DNA of 64,000 bases from a virus, in UHGV virus genome UHGV-1962423; one strand, given 5' to 3'. The notes under the pieces are model-generated. The model searched no databases. It was not told the origin of the DNA and was given only the letters and a program-made list of their open reading frames with translations. This document shows, piece by piece, positions 5,954-58,112 of this stretch. Every line of letters starts with the position of its first letter. Position 1 is the first letter of the stretch. The position numbers and the translations under genes were made by a program.

Positions 5954-6754
5954 ATGAGCAATTTACTTACTTTCCGCATGTCTGGTCAAACGTTAATGCA
6001 GATTGACGAGTACGAAAAAGAACATTTCGCTAAACCGTCCAAACTGTTAGAACGTTGCTTAAAGGTTATTCCAGGCGGCGAGCACTGTCAGCTAGATTTC
6101 GTCATGGCGTCTTCTGCTGACAAAACGGTCTCTGTTATCTACACGGTTGACGGAGTACAGGGCCATCGCTTATTACCGATTGAAGAAAAAGGTTCTTTGG
6201 GTAATTTGTTGTTCTTGCACGCAATCACGACTGCGGTAGTGACGGGAGCACTGGGAGCGCAGTACGGTTTCGCCTATTGTTATTTCTACGCACAGAAGTT
6301 GGCGAATGCGGTAGTTCCAGGAGAACCAGAAACGTATCCGAAGTATATCGAACGTTTGCTTCCGACGCATTTTGCTGAGTCTGACGACTATGAGTTCAAT
6401 GCTTTCCGTTTCACGATGATTGGCGAAGCACGCGATCCTGAAAACACCATTGCGTTACGTGCTGTTGTTCGTTACGCAGTAATTTCGTCTGACAGCGGAA
6501 TGGCAAGCAACTTCAACGAAGTGTTCCCGGTTATGCAACTAGGTCCGTATATCACGTTTAACGCGTATGTACCGTTTACTTGTCAGTTAATCGGCCCGCA
6601 GGATAATGATTCTATCCTCCCGATTACTGAAGAGAAAGGTCTACATATTCGTGATGCCGTAGAAGTCATCAACGATAAACGTTTTACGATCTCATCGAAA
6701 AGCGGCATCGCCGATGAAGAACTTGCGGTTGTGAACAAAATGCAAGTGATGTAA
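5954..6754 (+). CDS. hypothetical protein (266 aa)
   Basis: Track ORF starts at TTG 5948; ATG at 5954 preceded by AAAGGA is the more plausible start. Confidence 0.75.
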   Translation: MSNLLTFRMSGQTLMQIDEYEKEHFAKPSKLLERCLKVIPGGEHCQLDFVMASSADKTVSVIYTVDGVQGHRLLPIEEKGSLGNLLFLHAITTAVVTGALGAQYGFAYCYFYAQKLANAVVPGEPETYPKYIERLLPTHFAESDDYEFNAFRFTMIGEARDPENTIALRAVVRYAVISSDSGMASNFNEVFPVMQLGPYITFNAYVPFTCQLIGPQDNDSILPITEEKGLHIRDAVEVINDKRFTISSKSGIADEELAVVNKMQVM

Positions 6755-6760
6755 AATTAT

Positions 6761-6796
6761 CCCGTTACCCACAAAGGTAACGGGATGTCCTTTTAT
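6761..6796 (+). terminator. rho-independent terminator
   Basis: cccgttacc-cacaaa-ggtaacggg followed by T-rich tract. Confidence 0.65.
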
Positions 6797-6917
6797 TTAC
6801 TCGTAAACGCGTCTTAGACGCTGTTTTACACCTTAAGACGATTAATGGTGTTTAAAAAATAAAAGGTCGTCAGAATGCGATACAGCGCGTTTTAGAGGGT
6901 GTTTTAATTAAAATATT

Positions 6918-6958
6918 TTCAGATATATATTACTTAGGTGAGAGAATTACGTAATACT
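6918..6958 (+). promoter_or_regulatory. conserved promoter-like box TTCAGATATATATTACTTAGGTGAGA plus palindromic hairpin
   Basis: One of five near-identical AT-rich boxes in the window; hairpin core attacgtaat at 6946-6955; about 45 nt upstream of ATG 6991. Confidence 0.6.
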
Positions 6959-6990
6959 CATTTATCGTATACCTAATTAGGAGCTATATC

Positions 6991-7134
6991 ATGATTTCTG
7001 TAAAACACAAAAAAGCTATCTTCGCTGTTGTTATCGCTGTTGTTCTGGGTTGCCTGTACCTGGATATCGACAAAGGCTACGACACTTGCATCGACAACGG
7101 TAATTCCGTTGCGCAGTGCACTGGTCGTGGTTAA
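6991..7134 (+). CDS. small hydrophobic protein, possible lipoprotein (47 aa)
   Basis: Not in ORF track (short). TAGGAG RBS; MISVKHKKAIFAVVIAVVLGCLYLD... has a signal/TM segment with LGC lipobox-like motif; codons look highly expressed; strong terminator follows. Confidence 0.6.
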   Translation: MISVKHKKAIFAVVIAVVLGCLYLDIDKGYDTCIDNGNSVAQCTGRG

Positions 7135-7138
7135 TGTA

Positions 7139-7170
7139 TAAGGCACCTTCGGGTGCCCTTAATTTTTTTA
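7139..7170 (+). terminator. rho-independent terminator
   Basis: aggcacc-ttcg-ggtgcct followed by aattttttta. Confidence 0.7.
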
Positions 7171-7188
7171 TTAATTGGAGCATAAACG

Positions 7189-8004
7189 ATGATTACTATT
7201 AAAGATTATTTTCCGCGTGGGTTGAGCAATGAAAACTTCGTTCCAACTGAAGACATTGCCATCGTTGCAGAGTCCAGCGATAAGTCTTTTAAACTCTACT
7301 TGAGTACGGCAGCAGGAAAATCCACTCTTATCCTTCGTGAACCTGAAGTGATAAGCATCTGCTCGTTTGGGGGTGGTGTAGAAGGAACGATTAACTGGTT
7401 GAAATCCAGAATGCATCGTTTGCTTATCGTGAATACCGATCCTGTGATTCGTTTACAGCAATTGAAATCGTTGAATGAAATTATCGTCGGATTATTGGAA
7501 CATGAAACGTTTGGTAATGCTGAGATTGCGGAAGCGATTAAATCTGTAGAACTAATCGAGTGGAGCGATATCGAATACGAACGTGCTGGGTTATTCGCAA
7601 TGTACGGTGATGATAATCCCGTTGCGTTTGCACAAACGTTGGATAATGTTACCGTAACAGCGCGCGTATTGTTTGGTTTACAACGTGTTGAGTTTGAACT
7701 GAAACACGTCTACGTGAGCAATAAACCGGAGATGGTGGAGACATTGATTCGTGCTTTCGCATACCCGTTAGACGGTGAATGGGAACAGCAGATTAATGAA
7801 GCGTTAGAAGCCATGCATTTCCTGGCTGAAACGTTAAGGAAGGATGAGAAATTGAAAGGTCGTGTTTATCCAGAACACGATTTTGTTTGTGAAGAATGTG
7901 GAGCACAGTATCAAATCCGTGTTCCTTTAACCGGCCTAACATTCCCGCAAGCCAACGTGCAATGTAAGGAATGTGGTCATGTTCAATACGTAGCGATTAA
8001 ATAA
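7189..8004 (+). CDS. hypothetical protein with C-terminal zinc ribbon (271 aa)
   Basis: GGAG RBS; C-terminal CEECG...(21 aa)...CKECG pair of CxxC motifs. Confidence 0.75.
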   Translation: MITIKDYFPRGLSNENFVPTEDIAIVAESSDKSFKLYLSTAAGKSTLILREPEVISICSFGGGVEGTINWLKSRMHRLLIVNTDPVIRLQQLKSLNEIIVGLLEHETFGNAEIAEAIKSVELIEWSDIEYERAGLFAMYGDDNPVAFAQTLDNVTVTARVLFGLQRVEFELKHVYVSNKPEMVETLIRAFAYPLDGEWEQQINEALEAMHFLAETLRKDEKLKGRVYPEHDFVCEECGAQYQIRVPLTGLTFPQANVQCKECGHVQYVAIK

Positions 8005-8010
8005 AAGCAA

Positions 8011-8055
8011 CCCCTAATCCCGAAAAGGATTAGGGGTACACTTTATTTATTTTCG
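8011..8055 (+). terminator. rho-independent terminator
   Basis: cccctaatcc-cgaaaa-ggattagggg followed by T-rich tract. Confidence 0.7.
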
Positions 8056-8076
8056 CTCTTAAAAGGAAATTGTGTC

Positions 8077-8232
8077 ATGAGAAATGTTAATGCAATGCTT
8101 AACCAGGCATTTGTTAACCAACAGCGTTTTCAGGAACGCTTAGCACAACTTAAAACACAACACAGACCACCACAACAAAGAGTGGTTAAGAGCAAGTTCG
8201 GCGAAATGGTTTTCGAAAGAAAATCTTTCTAA
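8077..8232 (+). CDS. small protein, tandem paralog 1 (51 aa)
   Basis: Not in track. MRNVNAMLNQAFVNQQRFQERLAQ...FGEMVFERKSF; AAGGAAA RBS; own terminator downstream. Confidence 0.5.
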   Translation: MRNVNAMLNQAFVNQQRFQERLAQLKTQHRPPQQRVVKSKFGEMVFERKSF

Positions 8233-8240
8233 TAACCGTT

Positions 8241-8265
8241 AGGGGTGTGACAGCACCCCTTTTTA
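8241..8265 (+). terminator. rho-independent terminator
   Basis: aggggtg-tgacag-cacccct followed by ttttt. Confidence 0.65.
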
Positions 8266-8382
8266 CGCTTTAACTTTTCCAAAGAGAAGTTAAAGCAGTA
8301 AGGACTGTTGGCGCAGTCCTTACTTGTCATCGCTATTACAGAAACGTGATAGCACAATTCTAATTTTTAGAGGCGATCAGAA

Positions 8383-8550
8383 ATGTTCGACAGTATTACA
8401 CAAATTTTTAACACTACCGTAAACAATCACGCTCAGCAAGCGAAGTTTAATGAACGATTAAGGGAAGTTCAACAATTAGGATTAAATAAAAGATTAAAAT
8501 CTTCCAATAATCCTCGAGTACAGATCTTCACCGAAAGGAGAAGTAACTGA
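8383..8550 (+). CDS. small protein, tandem paralog 2 (55 aa)
   Basis: Not in track. MFDSITQIFNTTVNNHAQQAKFNERLREVQQLGLNKRLKSSNNPRVQIFTERRSN; shares NKRLK...QIFTERRS tail with paralog 3. Confidence 0.55.
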   Translation: MFDSITQIFNTTVNNHAQQAKFNERLREVQQLGLNKRLKSSNNPRVQIFTERRSN

Positions 8551-8556
8551 TAAAAA

Positions 8557-8590
8557 CAAGGTGAGCTGTTGGAGCAGCTCACCTTTTACA
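8557..8590 (+). terminator. rho-independent terminator
   Basis: aaggtgagctg-ttgga-cagctcacctt followed by tta. Confidence 0.65.
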
Positions 8591-8646
8591 ACGCCATTAC
8601 GTTTCCGTAATGGATTTCTTTAATCACCCTACAAAGAGGGCTTACC

Positions 8647-8820
8647 ATGAACAATGGTTACTACTTTACTGACAAAATGCTTGCAGAACAATATGCAGCA
8701 AAAACCAATTTACAGCAACGTATCTACGAGTATAGTCAACTCGGTGCGAATAAACGATTAAAACCATCAACCAACCGTTTCACACAGATAATCACTGAAA
8801 AAAGGAGTGAACGCTACTAA
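8647..8820 (+). CDS. small protein, tandem paralog 3 (57 aa)
   Basis: Not in track. MNNGYYFTDKMLAEQYAAKTNLQQRIYEYSQLGANKRLKPSTNRFTQIITEKRSERY; AGAGGG RBS; hairpin gggggtg...caccccc downstream. Confidence 0.55.
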   Translation: MNNGYYFTDKMLAEQYAAKTNLQQRIYEYSQLGANKRLKPSTNRFTQIITEKRSERY

Positions 8821-8955
8821 CTAATAAAAGGGGGTGTGCTACCACCCCCTACTTAGTTCAGCAGTTGTCTTTCGTTCATAAATATTAGATGTCTTGTTTT
8901 TTTTTGCTTTTCGGGACGCATAAGGGGTCGTAGGGGGAGCCGAAGCTCCCCAGAC

Positions 8956-10518
8956 TCAAAAGAGTTCGTCACCCATACCGCCTGTAAAGACGTTAATCGA
9001 CGATGCAGTCACTGTTTCTTCTTTATCGCAATCCCATGGCAGAATGCCAACTTCACGGAAAGGTATTACTGTATAATGGTAAGCTTCTTTAGTATCGATA
9101 ATTGTACGGTGTTTACCACGTTGTACTTCTAAGTAACTATGCCCATTGACAACACGTTTGTTAAAATACATCTCACCGTCAGCTTCGTTATCCAAGCTGG
9201 AGCAGTTATCGTAAAGACCGCGACCTGGTAAGTTCTTACAGAAACTTGCTGGGTCTAACGCTTTTAATTTTTTGCCTTCTGGTGAGATTTGGTGTGGCGC
9301 TAACAAGAAACCACGGTTACGTACTACCTGGATGTTTCGAGCGATACGATAAATTTCTTTAATGTCGCTACCGGCAATCCCGTTACCGTGACCTGCTTTA
9401 CTGATAGTCCCGAAATAGTCTCCGCGAATCCCAGCTACATGATAACCTCGACGCTTTAAGTCCAGTATTAAGTCGTTTAAGTAATGTATTTTAAAATCTG
9501 AGTTTGTGTGTTTCTGAAAGATGTACTCCCAACCGTTAGCCCGCATTTTACTACAGAGGTAGTCCGACATTTTTGTGTTGTGTAAAGCTTTCTCTTCGTC
9601 GGTAGCGTTTTCAGAAGCAACCATAACCGGTGCTTCACCTTCAAAATGACCGTAGAGCGCTTGGTACGCATACGCCAAATTAACGTCCAGTTCGTTCTCT
9701 AAACTTAAATCGAGAATAACCGGCTGTAAATCCCCTTTAACGTTTTCCATTACCTTTTCAGGCGTATTGAATACCGGAATACTGATAGACAACAACAGAC
9801 TAAAAAGCGATTTACAGTTAAAGGGCAGTGCAGGCATTAGCCAAAGTTCTTCAGTAATCCCTTTGTTACAACCCAACATCTGGTTAATGGCTTTCCATCC
9901 GGTACGTAAACCATTACCCGCTGCTTTCTTACTGATTGAGTCGAACACATGTACGAACGGTGCACGGTTATCCGTAATAAGTTCACCTACGAGTGAGGGA
10001 ATCTTATTATGAGAGCGTTCACTGAACGTAGAGAGACTATCTCTGAGGTCGTTGAGCGCTGTTTGTAAATCAACGCGCGTTTCGGTTCCGTTCAGTGCGC
10101 CTAACGTACGACCTAATTTTTGTTTCAGTTGTACGCCTTGAATAGCTTGACGTAATTGGAAGTAGTATTGTGCTACTTGACGGTTAAGATGCTCGATGCG
10201 TGCTTCTGGTTCTTCTGGAATATCATCTTCCAGGAATTTGGTAATCGTATCGTATAGAGGACGTATTTGCGTAGTGGCCAGTTTCAAACGTTTCATGACG
10301 TTTGTGTGGTCGTAAGGCATACCGCCGTCTATGATGGATGTGATGATATCCTTGATTTCGACGAGGGCGGCACGTTCGTCACCTTCCTCTACGTAATCAG
10401 GAAGCTTAGCCTCTAACAGCACTTTTCTTATGACCTCGTGATCCTTCTCAGGGTCGGTCAGCAGACTTTCAGTGTATAGTGTGGCTAATGCGGTTATCAA
10501 CATCATTTTGTTATTCAT
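8956..10518 (-). CDS. hypothetical protein (520 aa)
   Basis: Long minus-strand ORF, one of only two reverse genes; AAGGATG RBS on minus strand; start lies 13 bp from the divergent + gene start. Confidence 0.75.
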   Translation of the reverse strand: MNNKMMLITALATLYTESLLTDPEKDHEVIRKVLLEAKLPDYVEEGDERAALVEIKDIITSIIDGGMPYDHTNVMKRLKLATTQIRPLYDTITKFLEDDIPEEPEARIEHLNRQVAQYYFQLRQAIQGVQLKQKLGRTLGALNGTETRVDLQTALNDLRDSLSTFSERSHNKIPSLVGELITDNRAPFVHVFDSISKKAAGNGLRTGWKAINQMLGCNKGITEELWLMPALPFNCKSLFSLLLSISIPVFNTPEKVMENVKGDLQPVILDLSLENELDVNLAYAYQALYGHFEGEAPVMVASENATDEEKALHNTKMSDYLCSKMRANGWEYIFQKHTNSDFKIHYLNDLILDLKRRGYHVAGIRGDYFGTISKAGHGNGIAGSDIKEIYRIARNIQVVRNRGFLLAPHQISPEGKKLKALDPASFCKNLPGRGLYDNCSSLDNEADGEMYFNKRVVNGHSYLEVQRGKHRTIIDTKEAYHYTVIPFREVGILPWDCDKEETVTASSINVFTGGMGDELF

Positions 10519-11068: not shown

Positions 11069-13354
11069 ATGAAAGATACCCGAATCTCTAATTTAGAGAA
11101 ACTCGTAGAAGCCGGTACTAGTCTGGCCCAAAACGTCATCGGCAACAACACCGCCAGCGAAATGTGGAAGACGATTGTTGCAGGCGAGTCCGTACGTAGC
11201 AACGCAAAAGTATTTGGCGCTCTGCGTGACGAAGCATCACAGCACTATGCCAACGCTTTTGGCGGCAAGAAAATGTCTCATGCTGCGACCGTCGCTTCCG
11301 CAATGATTCTGGGCGTAGCTAACCACGGTAAAGACCTGCAAGAACGTGTTGCCCAGGAATACGCTAAGCCGGAATTCCACACCAAGTATAACCTGGATAT
11401 TGGTATCCCTGGTGCGCAAGGTGGTGATTGGGGTCGTGAGCGTATGGTTGTTGCTCAGGAATACTACAGCAACAAAGACTACGACAAAAACTTGGGCCTG
11501 ACCTGGACCCTGAACGTACGTGCTCTGGAAACTCAGTCCAAGTTTGCTGAAACACTGTTCCCGACCATTACCGTTGACACCAACGATGTTGGTATTACCG
11601 TACGTACTAAAGTGACTACCGTTTCTCGCGGTATCATGAACGCGCTGCTGAGCAAAGACGTCGTTGAAGATCATCGTCGTCCGCTGCACAACGCACTGAC
11701 TGACCACACCGTTCTCCAGGACGAAGCGATCAACATCGTTCCTTACGTAATGGAAACCGGTGAAAACCAGGAATACTTCGTAAGCGAAGATCTGGTTCCG
11801 AACGAAAAAGTTCGCCTGGGTCGTGTACCTCCGTATCCGACTAACTACCTGAGCTTTGCAAACGACACGCTGAACCTGTTCCAGCTGTCTGCGCATCCGG
11901 GTATCGTTCAGGAAGGTTACGATGAAACTGATGAAATCGCACCGGGTTGTGCTCTGGGCAGCCTGCTGATTTCTGTACGTAAACCGGCCGAAGAAGCGAA
12001 AGCGGGTAAATTCATCAAACTGCACGTTCGTGACATGCAGTTCGCAACCTTCCAGCGTCCTGCTGAAGGTGACGGCCGTGAACTGGTTCTGCAATTCCGT
12101 CGTACCGCGTTCTCTCTGAATGCGAAAACCACTGACTGGAAAGGCGACGCTATTCCGGCACTGCAAGCACTGGGCCAGAACTCCTACACCCTGCGCTACG
12201 TTATCACCATCACCATGTCCCTGTTCACCAGCGGCCAGTTCGGTGGTAAAGTAGACATTTCCGGCCACAAACTGGAAATCGAAGGTCTGTACGATGCAAC
12301 TGGTAACAAAGTTGATACCAAGTCTGGTACCGGCAAAGTTATCCTGGATGGCCTGAAACTCGAACTGATGGGCTGGCGCTTCGATGGTACTCGTACCAAC
12401 GAAAACCGTCGTACCCAGGGTCTGCTGCTTGACCCAATTTGGGAACAGGAAAACTACAAACTGCAATACGGTTCTCCGATTCTGACCAAGTCTCCGGTTG
12501 GTGTTGAATACGACGACACTGAACGTCTGGATGACCTGATCTCTGCGGTGAACATCCGTAACGAACAGCTGGCTATTACTCAGACGCTGTCTTACACTGA
12601 AGCAGTACGTAACGCAGCCGCTGCGATGATCACTCCGTGGGACAAACCGGCTATCCGTGGTCTGGGCCGTCACTGGGTTGCTCCGTGGTTCAAAGAGTCT
12701 GACTACAAAGTCGATGAAGTTGTTCAGTCTCTGGATACCAAAGAAGCGCTGATCAACGCTCGTCAGGGTCTGTTGCAGCGTATCGGTAGCCAGGTAACTC
12801 AGGCTATCCAGGATTCTCGTTTCATTCCTGCACTGCGCCTGCTGACCGCTGATCCGGACATTCTTCCGAAAGTTATTATCGCAACTGACGAACCGACTGC
12901 ATCCATGCTGCTGCTGGTTCAGGGCGACCAACGTCTGCTGGGCGACCGTTATGAATACGAAGTCGTTACCACCAACGATGACCGCTGGCGTATCTACAAC
13001 GCAGCTGACGATTCCTGGACTCGTCGTCTGCAATGGTTCCTGAAAGTTCCGACTGCGGACGATGGTTCCTACTGCGTACTGAACTGGGGTAACCACTTCT
13101 GGTCTCCGATCATGGTTACCAACATCAACATTCAGCGTAACGGTTCTACTTCTAAAGAACTGGCTGTACAGCCGCGTAACGCGCATATCTGCCACTGCCC
13201 GATCACTGGTCTGATTTGGGTTAAAGGCATCACCAAACTGGTTGAAGAAAAACTGGCTTACAACGTTTCTGTAGAACAGAACGGCCAGAAACAAACCGAA
13301 GGTGGTGTAGCAGGTAACCTTGCTGTCGAAGGCAAAGCTACCGCTGGTAAATAA
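11069..13354 (+). CDS. highly expressed major virion structural protein, possibly major capsid protein (761 aa)
   Basis: Strongest codon bias in the window (CTG, CGT, GGT, AAC, GAA), strong terminator downstream. Capsid assignment is inference from size and expression signature only. Confidence 0.85.
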   Translation: MKDTRISNLEKLVEAGTSLAQNVIGNNTASEMWKTIVAGESVRSNAKVFGALRDEASQHYANAFGGKKMSHAATVASAMILGVANHGKDLQERVAQEYAKPEFHTKYNLDIGIPGAQGGDWGRERMVVAQEYYSNKDYDKNLGLTWTLNVRALETQSKFAETLFPTITVDTNDVGITVRTKVTTVSRGIMNALLSKDVVEDHRRPLHNALTDHTVLQDEAINIVPYVMETGENQEYFVSEDLVPNEKVRLGRVPPYPTNYLSFANDTLNLFQLSAHPGIVQEGYDETDEIAPGCALGSLLISVRKPAEEAKAGKFIKLHVRDMQFATFQRPAEGDGRELVLQFRRTAFSLNAKTTDWKGDAIPALQALGQNSYTLRYVITITMSLFTSGQFGGKVDISGHKLEIEGLYDATGNKVDTKSGTGKVILDGLKLELMGWRFDGTRTNENRRTQGLLLDPIWEQENYKLQYGSPILTKSPVGVEYDDTERLDDLISAVNIRNEQLAITQTLSYTEAVRNAAAAMITPWDKPAIRGLGRHWVAPWFKESDYKVDEVVQSLDTKEALINARQGLLQRIGSQVTQAIQDSRFIPALRLLTADPDILPKVIIATDEPTASMLLLVQGDQRLLGDRYEYEVVTTNDDRWRIYNAADDSWTRRLQWFLKVPTADDGSYCVLNWGNHFWSPIMVTNINIQRNGSTSKELAVQPRNAHICHCPITGLIWVKGITKLVEEKLAYNVSVEQNGQKQTEGGVAGNLAVEGKATAGK

Positions 13355-14556: not shown

Positions 14557-16332
14557 GTGTTTAAAGATGCAATCAGAAAGCTTAAAGAGGATGGCAAAAT
14601 AGTACCCTTTAACCGAGCGATTGCGGAAGGTGTCGGTTATACCCAGGCCAAAGATGGTATACACGAACGTGTTCAGATTATCTTGAAACGTGAGCTGGAT
14701 TATCATCCTGTTGATAATCCGCGTGTTCCTGAAGGGCTGGCTGTATTAGGTGTACGGTTAATGTCGCCGTTTGAAACGTTCATCTATAAGCTGTCTCGTT
14801 CTGAGAGCAGCAGAATGGATAGACGCCGTGGTGTGATGTCCATTGCGAACACCGATGCGTATATGGTCATGTCAACATTCCGTATTCCAGGAGATTCTCG
14901 ACCGATCTCAAGACCGATTAACTTACCCTTTATCCGTCGTGGTGGTTTAATGAACTATTACGGTACGACGTATCACGTTGCGCCGGTTATTCACCAGCCA
15001 GGTATCTGTCGCGAACACGGTGGGGTATTTGTTAACTTTGACTTTAAACGTAAAGCCTCGTTGAAATTCTGTAAGCAACCTGTCCGTGTGTTAGTCAACG
15101 GTAAAAAAGAGGAGCTATTCTTACCAGGAACCAAAAACCTGTTCAAAGCGAAGAACGCAACACATCCCGATACTGACGAGAAACCGTTAATGTATTGGTT
15201 GTTCGGACGTTACGGATTTAAAGAAGCGATTAAACGCTATACTGGTGTTGACGTAGAAATTTATCCATCGTTTAAGATCCCAGAACTCGATCTCAACGAG
15301 AAAGTTGTAATCAGTTCCGGTGAATCGAAATATAACCGTTCGATAATGTACGCGGTTGTCGTACCCGCAGAAGCATTGCCGAACGTGGATAAAGTCGGTT
15401 GGGATCAAAACGAGCATTTATTGCTGGCTGCAATTGCTGCGTTCTTCAAAGCTGCTCACTACTATTGCAGTAAACAATCTATTAAGAACGGTAACGTCAC
15501 ACCGCTGCCGCCGCTGTTTACCGCAATTAACGAGTTAGCGATGGAAGACGATATTGCTAATCTGAACTCTGCTCCGATTTGGCGTGAGATTCTGGGAAGA
15601 AGTATCGTAGGACTGAAACCTTCCGATATTGAGTTAGCGCACAGTATGGCGAAACACTATACTGAATGTGATCGCTATGTTAACTCAACGTTCCGTGCAG
15701 AACTGAAGATGACCGATCCCGACATTCCAGACGATATGGATATGTTTGATTTCTTCTGGTATGCAACGAAACTGATGGTACGTACCCGTTTGACCAAACA
15801 GGGCGACATTCCGTCGATGTACGGAAAACGTTTAACCGTAACTGACTACTTACTGTTAGGTGACCGTGGGTTTACACCAACGGTAGCGGCTATTCGTTTC
15901 CAGCTGGGACAAACGGAGAACCGTTCGCCGGAATCCTGCGCGAATATGATTCGTAGCGCACTCAATAAAGAAATTGTCACGAGTCTGGTACTGCGTAATA
16001 TCACCGGTAATGGCGGTGTAAGTTATTTTAACGCATCAACAGAATCCATGGTGTTAGGAGTATCCACACACGCGATCAGTCAAACTGAAACGGAATCTAA
16101 ACGCAACAGCAAGGGCGGTAAAACGGTTAACCTTAACGACCGTACGAAACACGCTTCTGCATCGCATCTGGAGTGTGGTAACGTTTATTATATTCCGAAA
16201 TCATCCCCGTTCAAATGGGGTGTCCTTAACCCGTATATGAAAACTAACCGTCAGTTAGTGATGGTTCGTAATCCAAAACTTGACGAGTTAATTCAAGCAA
16301 CTGAAGAAGACATTGCGAAGATTGGCCGTTAA
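14557..16332 (+). CDS. hypothetical protein (591 aa), GTG start
   Basis: GTG at 14557 with AAGGAG 6 nt upstream. Confidence 0.8.
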   Translation: MFKDAIRKLKEDGKIVPFNRAIAEGVGYTQAKDGIHERVQIILKRELDYHPVDNPRVPEGLAVLGVRLMSPFETFIYKLSRSESSRMDRRRGVMSIANTDAYMVMSTFRIPGDSRPISRPINLPFIRRGGLMNYYGTTYHVAPVIHQPGICREHGGVFVNFDFKRKASLKFCKQPVRVLVNGKKEELFLPGTKNLFKAKNATHPDTDEKPLMYWLFGRYGFKEAIKRYTGVDVEIYPSFKIPELDLNEKVVISSGESKYNRSIMYAVVVPAEALPNVDKVGWDQNEHLLLAAIAAFFKAAHYYCSKQSIKNGNVTPLPPLFTAINELAMEDDIANLNSAPIWREILGRSIVGLKPSDIELAHSMAKHYTECDRYVNSTFRAELKMTDPDIPDDMDMFDFFWYATKLMVRTRLTKQGDIPSMYGKRLTVTDYLLLGDRGFTPTVAAIRFQLGQTENRSPESCANMIRSALNKEIVTSLVLRNITGNGGVSYFNASTESMVLGVSTHAISQTETESKRNSKGGKTVNLNDRTKHASASHLECGNVYYIPKSSPFKWGVLNPYMKTNRQLVMVRNPKLDELIQATEEDIAKIGR

Positions 16333-33758: not shown

Positions 33759-33795
33759 ACCCCTACCTTCGGGTAGGGGGTTATTTAATTTTTTC
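33759..33795 (+). terminator. rho-independent terminator
   Basis: cccctacc-ttcg-ggtagggg followed by T-rich tract. Confidence 0.75.
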
Positions 33796-33835
33796 TCAGA
33801 TATATATTACCTTAGTGAGATTACACAGTAATCTC
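33795..33835 (+). promoter_or_regulatory. conserved promoter-like box CTCAGATATATATTACCTTAGTGAGA plus hairpin
   Basis: Same box as at 6918, 53683 and 58071; hairpin gagattac-acag-gtaatctc; about 50 nt upstream of ATG 33870. Confidence 0.6.
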
Positions 33836-38788: not shown

Positions 38789-38833
38789 TTTCGATATAAC
38801 ATCAGCATTGCGTTGTTAACGGTCTAAAAAATT

Positions 38834-38866
38834 TAAGATATATTTCATCTATGTGAGAATTCTCAC
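38834..38866 (+). promoter_or_regulatory. variant promoter-like box AAGATATATTTCATCTATGTGAGA plus palindrome gtgagaattctcac
   Basis: Degenerate copy of the conserved box; perfect 14-bp palindrome 38853-38866; upstream of ATG 38890. Confidence 0.45.
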
Positions 38867-49799: not shown

Positions 49800-49809
49800 G
49801 GGGGGGGGG
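49800..49809. repeat. G10 homopolymer tract immediately upstream of start codon 49812
   Basis: Ten consecutive G directly read in sequence, 2 nt before the ATG; preceded by hairpin gcgtagggg...cccctacgc at 49763-49788. Confidence 0.9.
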
Positions 49810-49811
49810 TA

Positions 49812-50315
49812 ATGGCGGTTAACTCGGGTTGGGTCGGTTCTTCGGCTAAGAGCGAAACGGGCGAACAGTGGATGAGCGCTGCGGGTGCCAAATTGGGATT
49901 GGGTAAACCTTTTATGATGAGTCAAATGGTGGGACGATCTATGGGCTGTAAAATTTCAACTGCTGCATATAGTGATTCTTTAGGTAAGAAATGGGGTGCT
50001 GTGGGATCAAGTTGGCCATTAACTCAGAAAAATCAGGGAACCATTCAAAACGCGGGTAACTGCGGGGTGGGAACTTTAGTAGGTATAGAGTTACAATTAA
50101 CGACGGTAGTTGCCAACGCAACGCCTACTCTAGCGGTCTATTTACAAGGCGGCAGGGCCTCTAACATCACTGCAAATCTAGGCGGTAACACTTGTGCGCT
50201 GACCTATCAGCAGGTTATTAATGGCCAACATTATTACTGGACCAATAACATTAGTGCCGCGTTCCAAAACGTGATGAAATCGACCGGTACACTAAGAGAT
50301 TTCAAAATTAGTTAA
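49812..50315 (+). CDS. hypothetical protein downstream of tail fibre, paralog 2 (167 aa)
   Basis: Paralog of 49213 gene; start codon directly after the G10 tract. Confidence 0.65.
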   Translation: MAVNSGWVGSSAKSETGEQWMSAAGAKLGLGKPFMMSQMVGRSMGCKISTAAYSDSLGKKWGAVGSSWPLTQKNQGTIQNAGNCGVGTLVGIELQLTTVVANATPTLAVYLQGGRASNITANLGGNTCALTYQQVINGQHYYWTNNISAAFQNVMKSTGTLRDFKIS

Positions 50316-50352: not shown

Positions 50353-50362
50353 GGGGGGGGGG
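50353..50362. repeat. second G10 homopolymer tract in intergenic region
   Basis: Ten consecutive G, 55 nt upstream of GTG 50418. Confidence 0.9.
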
Positions 50363-50417: not shown

Positions 50418-50930
50418 GTGGAACAATTCACGCCAGATTTGTCGTTAACTTCACTTAACATGGTTATTTCACTGGTTAACCATGACCTCCAACTTGACTT
50501 GCAAGAGAATGAGGTCGAAGTCAGTGACGTAAAGACCAGTGACGAAATGGAACGTGACACCACTGCTGTTGTAAAGATAAAACGTTCTGGTAACAGAACG
50601 TTACAAATCTACTACAACCGTTTAACTGCAGAGCGGTGGTTAAACCGACAACCTGTACTTGTAAAAGTAACAGGCGAAGGGTTTAATGCGCACGATCTAA
50701 TCGAATCCATCAACACCGTTTGTGGTGCTAACTTACAAACCGACGATTTAACCGACCAGTCGTTCACGGTGGGTAAAGACGCGGTAATATTTAGCATCGC
50801 TCCGAGTTCCCTCGGCTACAAAGGTCAGTTCTCCGTGGTGGTTTTCGGTCCAGATGAAACACCGTGTGGTATCGGTGACGATTCTGTCGTGCTAACGTTT
50901 GACAATAAAATCTTAACCTTTGGAGAGTAA
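50418..50930 (+). CDS. small protein paired with downstream receptor-binding protein, module B (170 aa)
   Basis: GTG start with AGGAGG RBS; paralog of 44124..44687. Confidence 0.7.
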   Translation: MEQFTPDLSLTSLNMVISLVNHDLQLDLQENEVEVSDVKTSDEMERDTTAVVKIKRSGNRTLQIYYNRLTAERWLNRQPVLVKVTGEGFNAHDLIESINTVCGANLQTDDLTDQSFTVGKDAVIFSIAPSSLGYKGQFSVVVFGPDETPCGIGDDSVVLTFDNKILTFGE

Positions 50931-53640: not shown

Positions 53641-53683
53641 GTAGCAGGGGCTAAGCCCCTGCTACCTTTTTCTTTATTTTTTC
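53641..53683 (+). terminator. rho-independent terminator
   Basis: gtagcagggg-ctaa-gcccctgctac followed by ctttttctttatttttt. Confidence 0.8.
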
Positions 53684-53728
53684 TCAGATATATATTACCT
53701 AGAGGAGAGTGAAATTTACATTCACTCC
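53683..53728 (+). promoter_or_regulatory. conserved promoter-like box CTCAGATATATATTACCTAGAGGAGAG plus hairpin
   Basis: Box plus hairpin gagtgaa-atttaca-ttcactc; about 30 nt upstream of ATG 53757. Confidence 0.6.
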
Positions 53729-57789: not shown

Positions 57790-58060
57790 AACAGTTGTAT
57801 TTCGTAGTAATGGTGATGTGGTTTTGTATCGTGGTAAGAAACGTATTCGTACGTTAGAATACCGTGAAGCAAAACGTTTTGTTGAAGAGTGTGCATGGTT
57901 AATGCATTACGAAGGGAACTATCGTGCTATCTTAGAAGCTCCGCGTTTAGAACGTGCGGTTGCACAGATGGCAATAGGTAATCCTAAGAACTGTTACCTG
58001 GCCCGTAAGCCAAAATACTTACAGCGTCTTTCGTTAGGCAGCTTTATTGCTGGATTTTAA
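57779..58060 (+). CDS. hypothetical protein (93 aa)
   Basis: ATG 57779 with GGGAG 8 nt upstream; track start GTG 57758. Confidence 0.6.
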   Translation: MKRETVVFRSNGDVVLYRGKKRIRTLEYREAKRFVEECAWLMHYEGNYRAILEAPRLERAVAQMAIGNPKNCYLARKPKYLQRLSLGSFIAGF

Positions 58061-58070
58061 TAAAAATAAT

Positions 58071-58112
58071 TTCAGATATATATTACCTAGGTGAGAGTTC
58101 AGTTACTCTCAC
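58071..58112 (+). promoter_or_regulatory. conserved promoter-like box TTCAGATATATATTACCTAGGTGAGAG plus hairpin
   Basis: Hairpin gtgagagt-tcagtt-actctcac; about 30 nt upstream of ATG 58143. Confidence 0.6.

Follow-up and report, generated by a model that had tools for sequence, protein, structure and literature searches.

A plastic array of small basic-protein gene cassettes and hairpin spacers in a phiKZ-like jumbo phage

The main feature of the locus described here is the plasticity of an array of small gene cassettes, together with the modular hairpin spacers that separate them; both were missed by a preliminary description of the same DNA, which saw three tandem paralogous genes, each an independent unit with a terminator of its own. 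The locus lies in the window (the whole stretch analysed, 64,000 nt of the virus genome UHGV-1962423) and is likely to be a cassette array of the hyperplastic kind, carried by an enterobacterial jumbo phage of phiKZ-like type; its structural and evolutionary description, taken by itself, is very likely correct. In the arrangement that we propose, a cassette would be composed of a gene-specific 5′ part (the hairpins H3 and H4 and the RBS), a gene of 47–65 codons and a generic 3′ terminator-type hairpin (H1), with a near-invariant 30-nt palindrome (H2) linking one cassette to the next. The genes would be diverged paralogues of one lineage-restricted family, and the product of a cassette is predicted to be a small, very basic, soluble helix-linker-helix protein.

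Genomic context of the array

The window belongs to a phiKZ-like jumbo phage and encodes a PhiKZ capsid protein and a homologue of the PHIKZ123 RNA-polymerase subunit. Its relatives are contigs of about 222 kb from gut metagenomes, two of which were deposited as "plasmids" of E. coli and Enterobacter. The array (Table 1) lies inside a structural-gene block, with virion structural proteins encoded upstream and the major capsid protein 2.2 kb downstream, and the GC content of the cassettes is 34–38%, versus 42–44% for the flanks and the window. The gene for the small hydrophobic protein is called in every related locus and has an orthologue in Machinavirus gene 85. The 271-aa gene that forms the left border has a dN/dS of about 0.12, and its alleles are phylogenetically discordant with the right flank; no match to it was found in the scan of genome contigs. 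On the right lies the helicase gene; when positions 7000–10000 were compared with GenBank phages by megablast, this gene alone gave a match, at 75% identity to Erwinia phage pEa_SNUABM_10.

Table 1. Features of the array and of its borders (positions in the window)
Feature	Position	Strand	Description
Promoter-like motif	6906..6944	+	T-rich tract, then CAGATATATATTACTTAGGTGAGAG; nearest candidate phage promoter upstream of the array
47-aa protein gene	6991..7134	+	Conserved; small hydrophobic protein; first gene after the promoter-like motif
271-aa protein gene	7189..8004	+	Conserved; left array border; phrog_10180, weak C-terminal zinc-ribbon signal
Terminator of the 271-aa gene	8010..8056	+	12-bp hairpin (8010-8037), then ACACTTTATTTATTTTCGC
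Cassette A	8077..8232	+	51-aa basic protein, pI 11.7; first slot, held by subtype A2 in other strains
H1	8242..8264	+	Generic terminator-type hairpin; GGGGTG-n6-CACCCC (8242-8259), then TTTTT
H2	8267..8296	+	Near-invariant 30-nt palindrome; GCTTTAACTTTTC-CAAA-GAGAAGTTAAAGC; junction/crossover point between cassettes
H3	8297..8324	+	11-bp hairpin; AG-n6-CTG / CAG-n6-CT; largely tracks the downstream gene type
H4, B-specific	8332..8353	+	Leader hairpin; GCTATTAC-agaaac-GTGATAGC, then RBS
Cassette B	8383..8550	+	55-aa basic protein, pI 11.4
H3, C-type	8558..8585	+	Hairpin directly after the B stop codon, then TTTT; possible weak terminator
H4, C-specific	8594..8613	+	Leader hairpin; CCATTACG-tttc-CGTAATGG
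Cassette C	8647..8820	+	57-aa basic protein, pI 9.75; predicted helix 3-35, linker, helix 44-55
Terminal H1-like hairpin	8829..8850	strand-neutral	GGGGGTG-n6-CACCCCC; between the array and the convergent helicase gene
DnaB-like helicase gene (PF20307)	8956..10518	-	Right array border, convergent to the array

Coding capacity of the three ORFs

The three ORFs of the preliminary description (51, 55 and 57 codons) were found exactly where it had placed them, on the + strand and with ATG starts, and the RBS that it had reported for each is present as an SD-like AAGGA (A), AGAGG (B) or AGAGGG (C), correctly spaced and on par with those of the neighbouring genes. Among the three frames, the annotated one has the best codon score, and substitutions between relatives concentrate at codon position 3. 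For B (orthologues P0002, P0007 and P0011), dN/dS is 0.10–0.27 in frame versus about 0.5–1.9 out of frame; for C, 0.11–0.21 in frame versus at least 0.75 out of frame (pairs with at least nine differences). The in-frame values are 0.17–0.24 for A2 and 0.12 for D, and across A2, B, C and D the other frames give about 0.5–4. The orthologues of A (P0015, L017, L018 and L023) show only five substitutions, three synonymous and two non-synonymous, and P0019 is an A allele with an in-frame deletion of four codons. Since the orthologues show frame-specific purifying selection (dN/dS 0.1–0.27), the ORFs are genes and not noise; B and C in particular are real genes under such selection.

The region is rich in hairpins, with 14 terminator-like sites versus four expected, and A and A2 were left unannotated by NCBI's pipeline in two deposited records, as would be the case if the ORFs were chance reading frames in a non-coding spacer, or structured RNAs without a protein product. 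The frame-specific selection and the in-frame indels speak against such a reading, as do the conservation of the ORFs in dozens of contigs, the correct RBS spacing and the lack of any Rfam match (Rfam 15, E-value threshold of 1, 0 matches over 6700–9100); it is extremely improbable for the array as a whole and, for B and C, already effectively refuted. The leader of C varies in length by non-multiples of 3 among strains, so that the true start of C is at MNNGYYF. A longer, 70-aa form of C (MDFFNHPTKRAY...) was considered and rejected: its upstream ATG is in frame only where the leader differs by 1–2 nt, and in the window there is an intervening stop codon.

Family relationships

The proposal that the three ORFs are tandem paralogues stands for B and C, which are significantly similar (Smith-Waterman score of 90, z = 14.4, 0/5000 shuffles), and the shared tail quoted for them in the preliminary description lies within this similarity; A, however, is not demonstrably similar to either of them in pairwise comparison (A–B, z = 0.9; A–C, z = 2.5). 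Against family profiles, A scores 6–8.5 bits (shuffle p of about 0.005–0.02), and hhalign gives a P of 0.0018 with a probability of just 15%. Subtype A2, in turn, scores 19.9 bits against the B/C/D profile, a value that none of 2000 shuffles reached. From these comparisons we regard B, C, D and A2 as firmly related, whereas A is probably a member of the family, linked to it mainly via the intermediate A2 and by its position and termini. The family alignment is nearly gapless around the motif F-x-x-R-phi-x-E-phi and the basic tail. At least seven subtypes are present, and one protein (P0016) is an A2/E hybrid.

The proteins are of 5.4–7.5 kDa, with a pI of 9.8–11.7, hydrophilic and without a hydrophobic segment; cysteine is absent from all subtypes except F, and the predicted structure is a long helix followed by a short one. 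No match to a characterised family was found in PHROGs or Pfam, a PDB sequence search returned nothing significant (best E = 0.56), a BFVD fold search gave no match, and neither nucleotide searches of phages (megablast, blastn) nor a tblastn search of GenBank phages found relatives of the ORFs. When 1.84 billion representatives were searched exhaustively with the family HMM, matches came from the clade of the window phage only. P0049, a 287-aa charged helical-repeat protein matched by the family HMM, is spurious, with only generic weak Pfam matches. Elsewhere in the window there are no further copies, the next best segment scoring 6.9 bits (E = 0.5).

The family is limited to this clade and to a single counterpart in Erwinia Machinavirus, gp88 of phage pEa_SNUABM_10 (QVW55951.1, P0022; with a relative, P0051), its closest homologue outside the clade. 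This 47-aa protein is encoded in the same slot, directly behind the upstream terminator and ahead of the convergent DnaB-like helicase gene, and matches the family profile with p of about 0.001; the Machinavirus locus also has in common with the window a flanking T-rich element and the loop sequence of the terminator. It differs in being present as a single copy, with no array and no H2 palindrome, and its similarity to copy A of the window is marginal (z = 2.4).

Hairpin modules in the spacers

Each gene had been credited with a terminator of its own, which is too simple a description. The spacer between A and B contains four hairpins (folding z = −8.7), and the first of these, with its run of five T's, is indeed terminator-like, but the other three are not. 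After B, a hairpin is also found, but it is followed by only four T's and then by a second, leader hairpin. The hairpin after C lacks a T-run on the + strand, the T-run being on the − strand, facing the helicase gene. The spacers are multi-hairpin modules rather than single terminators. That between B and C is short and lacks H1 and H2 (folding z = −5.0); an equally short junction occurs in L019.

The structure of the hairpins is conserved. The stem of H1 follows most cassettes in all loci, its loop being reverse-complemented between strains. In H2, 11 of the 13 pairs are invariant, one of these being a fixed U-G pair. H2 occurs once in the 64-kb window and, in three full-length viral contigs of about 221–225 kb, it was found in the array only, in one or two copies, one cassette apart; this restriction to the array rules it out as a genome-wide regulatory or mobile element. 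In H3, 99% of the cells are paired and seven of the 11 pairs show compensatory changes (0/500 shuffles; about 45% of cells paired in slid controls), and the sequence of H4 differs by cassette type, with one per type. The loop of the C-type H4, TTTC, is flipped to GAAA in other strains, and that of the terminal hairpin, TGCTAC, to GTAGCA in L019. We found 13 cases of identical stems with exactly reverse-complemented loops in different strains.

In phiKZ, the terminator motif is a GC-rich CCCC...GGGG hairpin followed by TTAT; terminators are partially read through, and bidirectional ones lie between convergent genes (PMC10914365). H1 and the hairpin of the 271-aa gene, both GC-rich with GGGG/CCCC stems and with T-rich or TTAT tails, appear to be of this type, and the 16-nt T-rich tail of the latter is identical across all relatives and Machinavirus. 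H2, H3 and H4, by contrast, lack T-tails, and termination does not account for them. In inverted repeats, template-switch mutations invert loops and homogenise arms (PMC8794818, PMC8604942), and the spacers of the family show both loop flips and perfectly compensated stem changes, a pattern from which we infer that template switching may have acted at the hairpins here. Most descriptions of such mutations concern cellular RNA genes and yeast coding sequence, however, and in the literature we found no documented case at phage intergenic hairpins. Covariation is no proof of selection on RNA structure, because template switching can rewrite both arms in a single event (PMC8794818, PMC8604942).

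Cassette exchange among relatives

Between the 271-aa gene and the helicase gene, the slot holds one to four cassettes, from A2 alone up to A2-E-B-C, in about 20 architectures among 36 loci, a sample that was retrieved via variant proteins and over-represents diversity. Remnants and frameshifted cassette copies are also present, though some of the frameshifted variants may be assembly errors at homopolymers. The arrays are mosaic: compared with the window, L023 shows 78% identity in the left flank, 100% in A and 99.7% in the helicase gene, and within the one array of L002 the identity is 77% for B and 97% for C. The arrays A-B-C, A-C and A-D share the same sequence to the end of H2 and differ from the next base on. 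The breakpoints are located at H2, and recombination between motifs would account for the indels and replacements among close relatives. Deletion on its own, with all arrays as subsets of [A or A2]-B-E-C-D, was rejected as a model, E preceding B in L034 and B preceding E in L011-14; a partial order of cassettes nonetheless persists, with A or A2 first, C after B and E, and D last.

As to mechanism, cassettes would be added, deleted, swapped and reordered by exchange between co-circulating phages within the H1-H2 block that they share, whether by homologous recombination, by unequal crossover or by template switching, and it would be because of this reshuffling that strains carry one to four cassettes in many combinations.

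The closest analogue is the promoter-early stem-loop (PeSL) of T4-type phages, a mobile regulatory cassette (Arbiol et al. 2010, PMC2839356; Comeau et al. 2014, PMC4122927); the window locus is not a member of this group. Both feature small non-essential ORFs in a hyperplastic region between conserved core genes, motifs containing a conserved stem-loop at the bounds of each ORF, and inter-motif recombination leading to insertion, deletion, replacement and reordering between close relatives. The stem-loop of PeSL acts as a transcription terminator; H1, of conserved structure, has the anatomy of one (a GC hairpin and a T-run) and may or may not act likewise. In contrast to PeSL, the window repeat contains no sigma-70-type or any other recognisable promoter, the H1-H2 repeat is found at one locus while the PeSL motif is dispersed over many regions, the cargo consists of paralogues of one family rather than of unrelated ORFans, and the window phage uses its own phiKZ-type RNA polymerases.

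Transcription of the array

The promoter-like motif nearest to the array, at about 6922, lies upstream of the two preceding genes. The motif recurs five times in the window (6922, 33799, 53687 and 58075, with a variant at 38837), in intergenic positions and on the + strand only, and the same core is found in Machinavirus (L001, about 3013). It matches the description of phiKZ early promoters, which have an AT-rich extended −10 element and a T-rich upstream tract (PMC8244752, PMC7598289), and may function as such. No copy of the motif is present in any cassette spacer; nor was a sigma-70-like promoter found upstream of A, B or C in a consensus scan, or a phiKZ-late TATG in the cassette spacers by direct reading. 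The view that each gene is an independent transcription unit thus finds no recognisable promoter at any cassette to build on. We favour, with modest confidence, expression by read-through or by attenuated transcription from the motif at about 6922, with no private promoter per gene; the hairpins would act as partial terminators and as stabilisers of RNA ends.

It is less likely, and on balance we doubt, that each gene is a moron-like autonomous unit coding for an early host-takeover or anti-defence protein, with a private promoter in the spacer (for instance in or after H2 or H3) and a terminator. A terminator-type hairpin does precede the next gene in each spacer, about 25% of phiKZ transcription units consist of one gene between a start and a terminator (PMC10914365), and hardly any consensus can be recognised in the middle and late promoters of phiKZ (PMC7598289), such that an unrecognised one could lie in the spacers. 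A weak lead is the TACT with which H3 ends in cassettes B, D and E, about 60 nt upstream of the ATG; this tetranucleotide recalls the phiKZ middle-promoter element (PMC8244752). The low GC content (34–38% versus 42–44% for the flanks and the window), the variation in presence between strains, and the location of small accessory genes between core genes with hairpin terminators after them are likewise reminiscent of morons and of phiKZ single-gene units (PMC10914365). However, in addition to the missing promoter motifs, the 96-nt spacer between B and C is almost wholly taken up by two hairpins and the RBS, and H2 is found nowhere else in the genome and is therefore not a general promoter. The private promoter that defines a moron was not found at the window cassettes; the genes form a tandem paralogous array, unlike independently acquired foreign genes; and the window phage is virulent, so that no logic of lysogenic conversion applies.

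Very improbable is a mainly cis-acting, leader-peptide-like function of the ORFs, with ribosomes pausing at a rare, SD-like AGG-AGA tail before the stop codon, masking the hairpin and tuning read-through or mRNA stability, the peptide itself being secondary. AGG, followed by AGA or AGG, is kept in the tails of A2, B, C, D and F, while it makes up only 1.9% of the Arg codons in the long genes of the phage, and H1 or H3 begins 6–12 nt past the stop codon; no tRNA genes possibly decoding AGG or AGA were found in the window. Yet the motif is absent from the tails of type A and of Machinavirus gp88, purifying selection extends over the full length of the ORFs, and there are conserved motifs well away from the tail. 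Furthermore, transcription and translation are spatially separated in nucleus-forming phiKZ-like phages, which makes coupled attenuation implausible.

Possible roles of the proteins

The array most likely consists of accessory genes that the phage can do without, and its proteins would be individually dispensable accessory factors. The accessory, fast-evolving behaviour of the locus fits a role in interaction with the host. We tentatively suggest that, in the cytoplasm of the infected cell, the proteins may bind nucleic acid or else an acidic target of host or phage origin, and could be host-interaction, takeover or counter-defence factors; a host-takeover or anti-defence function, which the preliminary description took to be typical of such families, is one that we purely infer.

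The high pI (9.8–11.7), the lack of a hydrophobic segment and the position of the array in the structural-gene block, near the major capsid protein gene, would also suit small basic proteins that are virion components or associated with DNA (e.g. packaged or DNA-condensing internal proteins), made late with the head genes and not directed at the host. Such a role is improbable: it would be unusual for structural components to show the free variation in copy number and subtype, and the frequent deletion or frameshifting of single cassettes, that is seen here; the closest promoter-like motif belongs to the AT-rich early type; and the composition of the genes is atypical for core genes.

Returning to accessory factors, a bolder extension, which we consider rather unlikely, is that the H1-H2(-H3) block could be an element dedicated to cassette exchange in nucleus-forming phiKZ-like phages, functionally analogous to PeSL but promoter-less. 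Template switching and recombination at the palindrome would then generate combinatorial repertoires of small basic effectors, for example counter-defence or ribosome- or RNA-targeting ones, in an arms race with enterobacterial hosts.

Significance

The function of most genes in phiKZ-like jumbo phages is unknown, and the turnover of the accessory genes of these phages is very poorly understood. Small ORFan arrays in plastic regions of large phages have been known before, and the locus extends this picture rather than coming as a surprise. It is, however, a compact and well-delimited case, in which a lineage-specific family of basic proteins of 6–7 kDa under purifying selection is combined with clear sequence signatures of cassette exchange, namely breakpoints at an invariant palindrome and flipped loops in the hairpins. 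It also illustrates that standard annotation misses some genes of this kind, A and A2 being unannotated in RefSeq records. The array variants amount to a short list of natural "knock-out" and "swap" versions for comparison across hosts. Should the proteins turn out to act in host range or counter-defence, the array would serve as a useful marker for the arms races between phages and their hosts among gut Enterobacteriaceae.

Three small ORFs and their protein family

Three small ORFs, A, B and C, occupy the slot between a 271-aa gene and a DnaB-like helicase gene (see the table), exactly at the coordinates of the preliminary description. Each is preceded, at normal spacing, by a Shine-Dalgarno-like sequence resembling those of neighbouring genes. 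The three proteins had been regarded as paralogues; this holds for B and C, which have in common the C-terminal tail quoted at the time and align with a Smith-Waterman score of 90 against a shuffle mean of 23.5 (z=14.4; 0/5000 shuffles), but A has no demonstrable pairwise relation to B or C (z=0.9 and 2.5).

Features of the window (where given, strand is + or -)
Feature	Coordinates	Strand	Remarks
Promoter-like motif at 6922	6906-6944	+	
Promoter-like motif at 33799	33783-33821	+	
Promoter-like motif at 38837	38821-38860	+	variant
Promoter-like motif at 53687	53671-53709	+	
Promoter-like motif at 58075	58059-58097	+	
47-aa gene	6991-7134	+	first gene after the motif
271-aa gene	7189-8004	+	left flank
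A	8077-8232	+	51 aa
A-to-B spacer, H1, H2, H3, H4	8242-8259, 8267-8296, 8297-8324, 8332-8353		folding z=-8.7
B	8383-8550	+	55 aa
Rare-Arg tail of B	8530-8547		
B-to-C spacer, H3, H4	8558-8585, 8594-8613		short form; folding z=-5.0
C	8647-8820	+	57 aa
Poly-A runs in C	8653-8658, 8803-8808		
Rare-Arg tail of C	8800-8811		
Hairpin 3' of C	8829-8850		T-run on minus strand, towards convergent helicase gene
Divergent DnaB-like helicase	8956-10518	-	right border of array
PhiKZ-type major capsid protein	11069-13354		
PHIKZ123 homologue	14557-16332		PDB 7OGP chain E, E=1e-17
G10 tracts	49800-49809, 50353-50362		
Small ORFs behind G10 tracts	49812-50315; GTG at ~50367 / 50418-50930		

On sequence evidence, these cassette ORFs are real genes. 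Among orthologous alleles (Nei-Gojobori), in-frame dN/dS was 0.10-0.27 for B, 0.11-0.21 for C and, for the further subtypes A2 and D, 0.17-0.24 and 0.12, against ~0.5-4 in the other two frames, with substitutions concentrated at third codon positions; the 271-aa neighbour gave ~0.12. A showed five substitutions in all (three synonymous, two non-synonymous), and one allele lacks four codons in frame; these changes are consistent with coding, although five substitutions are underpowered. The codon-usage score was best in the annotated frame of the three, yet below that of typical phage genes, and the cassettes are AT-rich: their GC content is 34-38%, that of the flanks 42-43% and that of the window 44.5%. 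For B and C, the rival reading of a non-coding artefact is effectively ruled out.

Three alignments were searched against 5.8 billion proteins, and an HMM exhaustively against 1.84 billion representatives; these searches recovered only the phage clade of the window, the Machinavirus counterpart gp88 and a gp88 relative (P0051); Pfam, PHROGs, PDB sequences and BFVD folds gave no match. When the interval was read in related contigs, at least seven subtypes were distinguished (A, A2, B, C, D, E and F), which align with almost no gaps, share F/L-x-x-R/H-phi-x-E/D-phi as their central motif and have a basic C-terminus. Against a B/C/D profile, A2 gives 19.9 bits (0/2000 shuffles), the central motif of E resembles that of D, and one variant (P0016) is a natural A2/E hybrid. 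A reaches 6-8.5 bits against family profiles (p ~0.005-0.02), a score that, among the window's 83 small ORFs, only B and C exceed, and hhalign aligns its motif in register (P=0.0018, probability 15%). Taking these weak scores together with size, position, orientation, termini and spacer context, we judge, short of proof, that A is probably a diverged family member. All subtypes are small (5.4-7.5 kDa), basic (pI 9.8-11.7), hydrophilic and Q/N-rich, with cysteine absent except in F. In the AlphaFold2 prediction from the family alignment (mean pLDDT 69), residues 3-35 form a long helix (pLDDT ~85), which a flexible linker joins to a short helix at the C-terminus.

The C-terminal Arg of A2, B, C, D and F is always encoded by AGG, which makes up 1.9% of Arg codons in the long genes of the phage, followed by AGA or AGG. 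These rare Arg codons of the conserved, basic tail (AGG-AGA, AGG-AGT, AGG-AGG; for A2, D and F in loci L006, L015, L022 and L036) create an AGGAG-like purine motif, a Shine-Dalgarno-like AAGGAG just 5' of the stop codon, with no start codon following at the corresponding spacing. Cassette C also has frameshift alleles (P0003, P0005, P0013, P0014) at short poly-A runs (gcAAAAAAcc, ctgAAAAAAgg); these may reflect assembly errors at homopolymers or genuine inactivation sites that are prone to slippage.

Plasticity and mosaic ancestry of the array

Among 36 loci, the slot that the 271-aa and helicase genes enclose contains 1-4 cassettes, in about 20 architectures; since loci were sampled through variant proteins, diversity is overstated. 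Examples with A or A2 are A-B-C (the window), A-C, A-D, A2 alone, A2-D, A2-B-C, A2-C-D, A2-E-C and A2-E-B-C, and examples with neither are E-C, B-C, B-E, B-D, C-D, E-D and B-F; some loci hold cassette remnants and frameshifted copies. A single-order model, in which all arrays are subsets produced by deletion only, was ruled out: E precedes B in L034 and follows it in L011-14, so that genuine reordering takes place. Identities to the window show that ancestry is mosaic, being 78% in the left flank, 100% in A and 99.7% in the helicase gene at locus L023, and 77% in B and 97% in C within the single array of L002. Across L002-L034, allele relationships of the left flank (~76%, 88% or 92% identity) and the right flank (~89-91% or 98-99%) are discordant, so that a recombination breakpoint between the backbones of phage lineages is marked by the array.

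A full spacer (~150-160 nt) runs from the stop codon through hairpins H1, H2, H3 and H4 to the RBS and ATG. H1 is a generic, terminator-like GGGGTG-n6-CACCCC hairpin followed by a T-run; H2 is a near-invariant 30-nt palindrome, GCTTTAACTTTTC-n4-GAGAAGTTAAAGC, with 11/13 pairs invariant, a fixed U-G pair among them; H3 is an 11-bp hairpin whose stem varies by cassette type (99% paired, compensatory double changes at 7/11 pairs); and H4 is specific to the downstream gene. No second H2 copy was found in the window, and three viral contigs of ~221-225 kb hold one or two only, one cassette apart. Crossovers are placed at H2 because A-B-C, A-C and A-D arrays are identical up to its last base and diverge directly after it.

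In 13 pairs of hairpins from different strains, the stems are identical and each loop is the exact reverse complement of its counterpart (for example TTGGCG/CGCCAA, TGACAG/CTGTCA, TGCTAC/GTAGCA and TTTC/GAAA); the hairpins concerned are H1 and H3 of the A-to-B spacer, both hairpins of the B-to-C spacer, the hairpin 3' of C and equivalent hairpins in L002-L036. Such loops are the hallmark of template switching between the arms of an inverted repeat (PMC8794818, PMC8604942), and the flip-flop points to recurrent template switching or recombination between hairpin arms. Template switching can also account for the perfectly compensated stems, with no need for selection on the RNA.

Transcription of the array

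A promoter-like motif, a T-rich tract followed by CAGATATATATTAC(C/T)TAGGTGAGAG, recurs in the window, always intergenic, on the plus strand only and usually with a small hairpin after it; its core is also present in Machinavirus. It fits the description of jumbo-phage early promoters as phage-specific, with an AT-rich extended -10 and a T-rich upstream tract (PMC7598289, PMC8244752), and is probably the early (virion RNA polymerase) promoter of this phage. The copy nearest to the array stands before the 47-aa and 271-aa genes, and these two genes precede the array. The 47-aa protein has a hydrophobic N-terminal helix and a conserved C-terminal C-x-(D/A)-N-G-N-S-(V/I)-(A/S)-Q-C-T-G-R-G, and is kept from Escherichia phages to Erwinia Machinavirus (gene 85; 3295-3432 in L001).

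The cassettes contain neither this motif nor a sigma-70-like promoter nor the phiKZ-late TATG. Hairpin-TTAT terminators of phiKZ are abundant, can be bidirectional and often permit read-through (PMC10914365), which favours expression of the array by attenuated read-through from ~6922; the spacer hairpins would then terminate transcription in part and stabilise RNA ends. Alternatively, the cassettes may be driven by middle or late promoters of their own, poor in motifs, within the array.

Phage context

The window comes from a phiKZ-like jumbo phage; PHIKZ123, which has a homologue here, is a phiKZ non-virion RNA polymerase subunit. Of the GenBank phages, Erwinia phage pEa_SNUABM_10 (Machinavirus) alone matches 7000-10000, with 75% identity and in the helicase gene only. 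Nearer relatives are ~220-228-kb contigs from gut and environmental metagenomes, one of which (L032) is identical to the window in every segment compared. Two others are filed as circular "plasmids", NZ_CP173450.1 (E. coli 98232, 221,873 bp; L022) and NZ_CP134650.1 (Enterobacter ludwigii, 222,441 bp; L023). These are near-complete genomes of this phiKZ-like virulent-type jumbo phage, from clinical and wildlife isolates of two genera, and could mean a carrier state, pseudolysogeny or co-isolation; in each record, D is the one cassette that NCBI's pipeline annotated, and A and A2 were overlooked. Elsewhere in the window, after a 1438-aa tail-fibre gene, two G10 homopolymer tracts directly precede the start codons of two small ORFs and may be slippage-prone signals for phase-variable expression or unusual G-rich ribosome-binding sites.

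Possible role and known counterparts

Dispensability, purifying selection, diversification, low GC, the basic helical nature of the proteins and the nearby early-type promoter motif lead us to propose, tentatively, that the cassette proteins are accessory, bind during infection to nucleic acid or to some acidic partner and serve in host interaction or counter-defence. Rival readings would give the proteins a virion or DNA-associated role, or the ORFs a cis-acting, leader-peptide-like regulatory one. In the structural and evolutionary description of the array itself we have high confidence.

Its best functional analogue is the PeSL system of T4-type phages: in hyperplastic regions there, small ORFans are bordered by conserved motifs, each a promoter with a stem-loop, and these motifs mediate a shuffling of modules (PMC2839356, PMC4122927). 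Both have a plastic array, stem-loop boundaries and recombination at repeats; however, the repeat here lacks a promoter and is not dispersed over the genome, both defining PeSL features, and its cargo is one paralogous family instead of unrelated ORFans. In composition and variability the array is also moron-like, but the cassettes have no recognisable private promoter. The tandem genes first noticed are real and more structured than was seen at the time; not a new kind of system, the array extends a known phenomenon.
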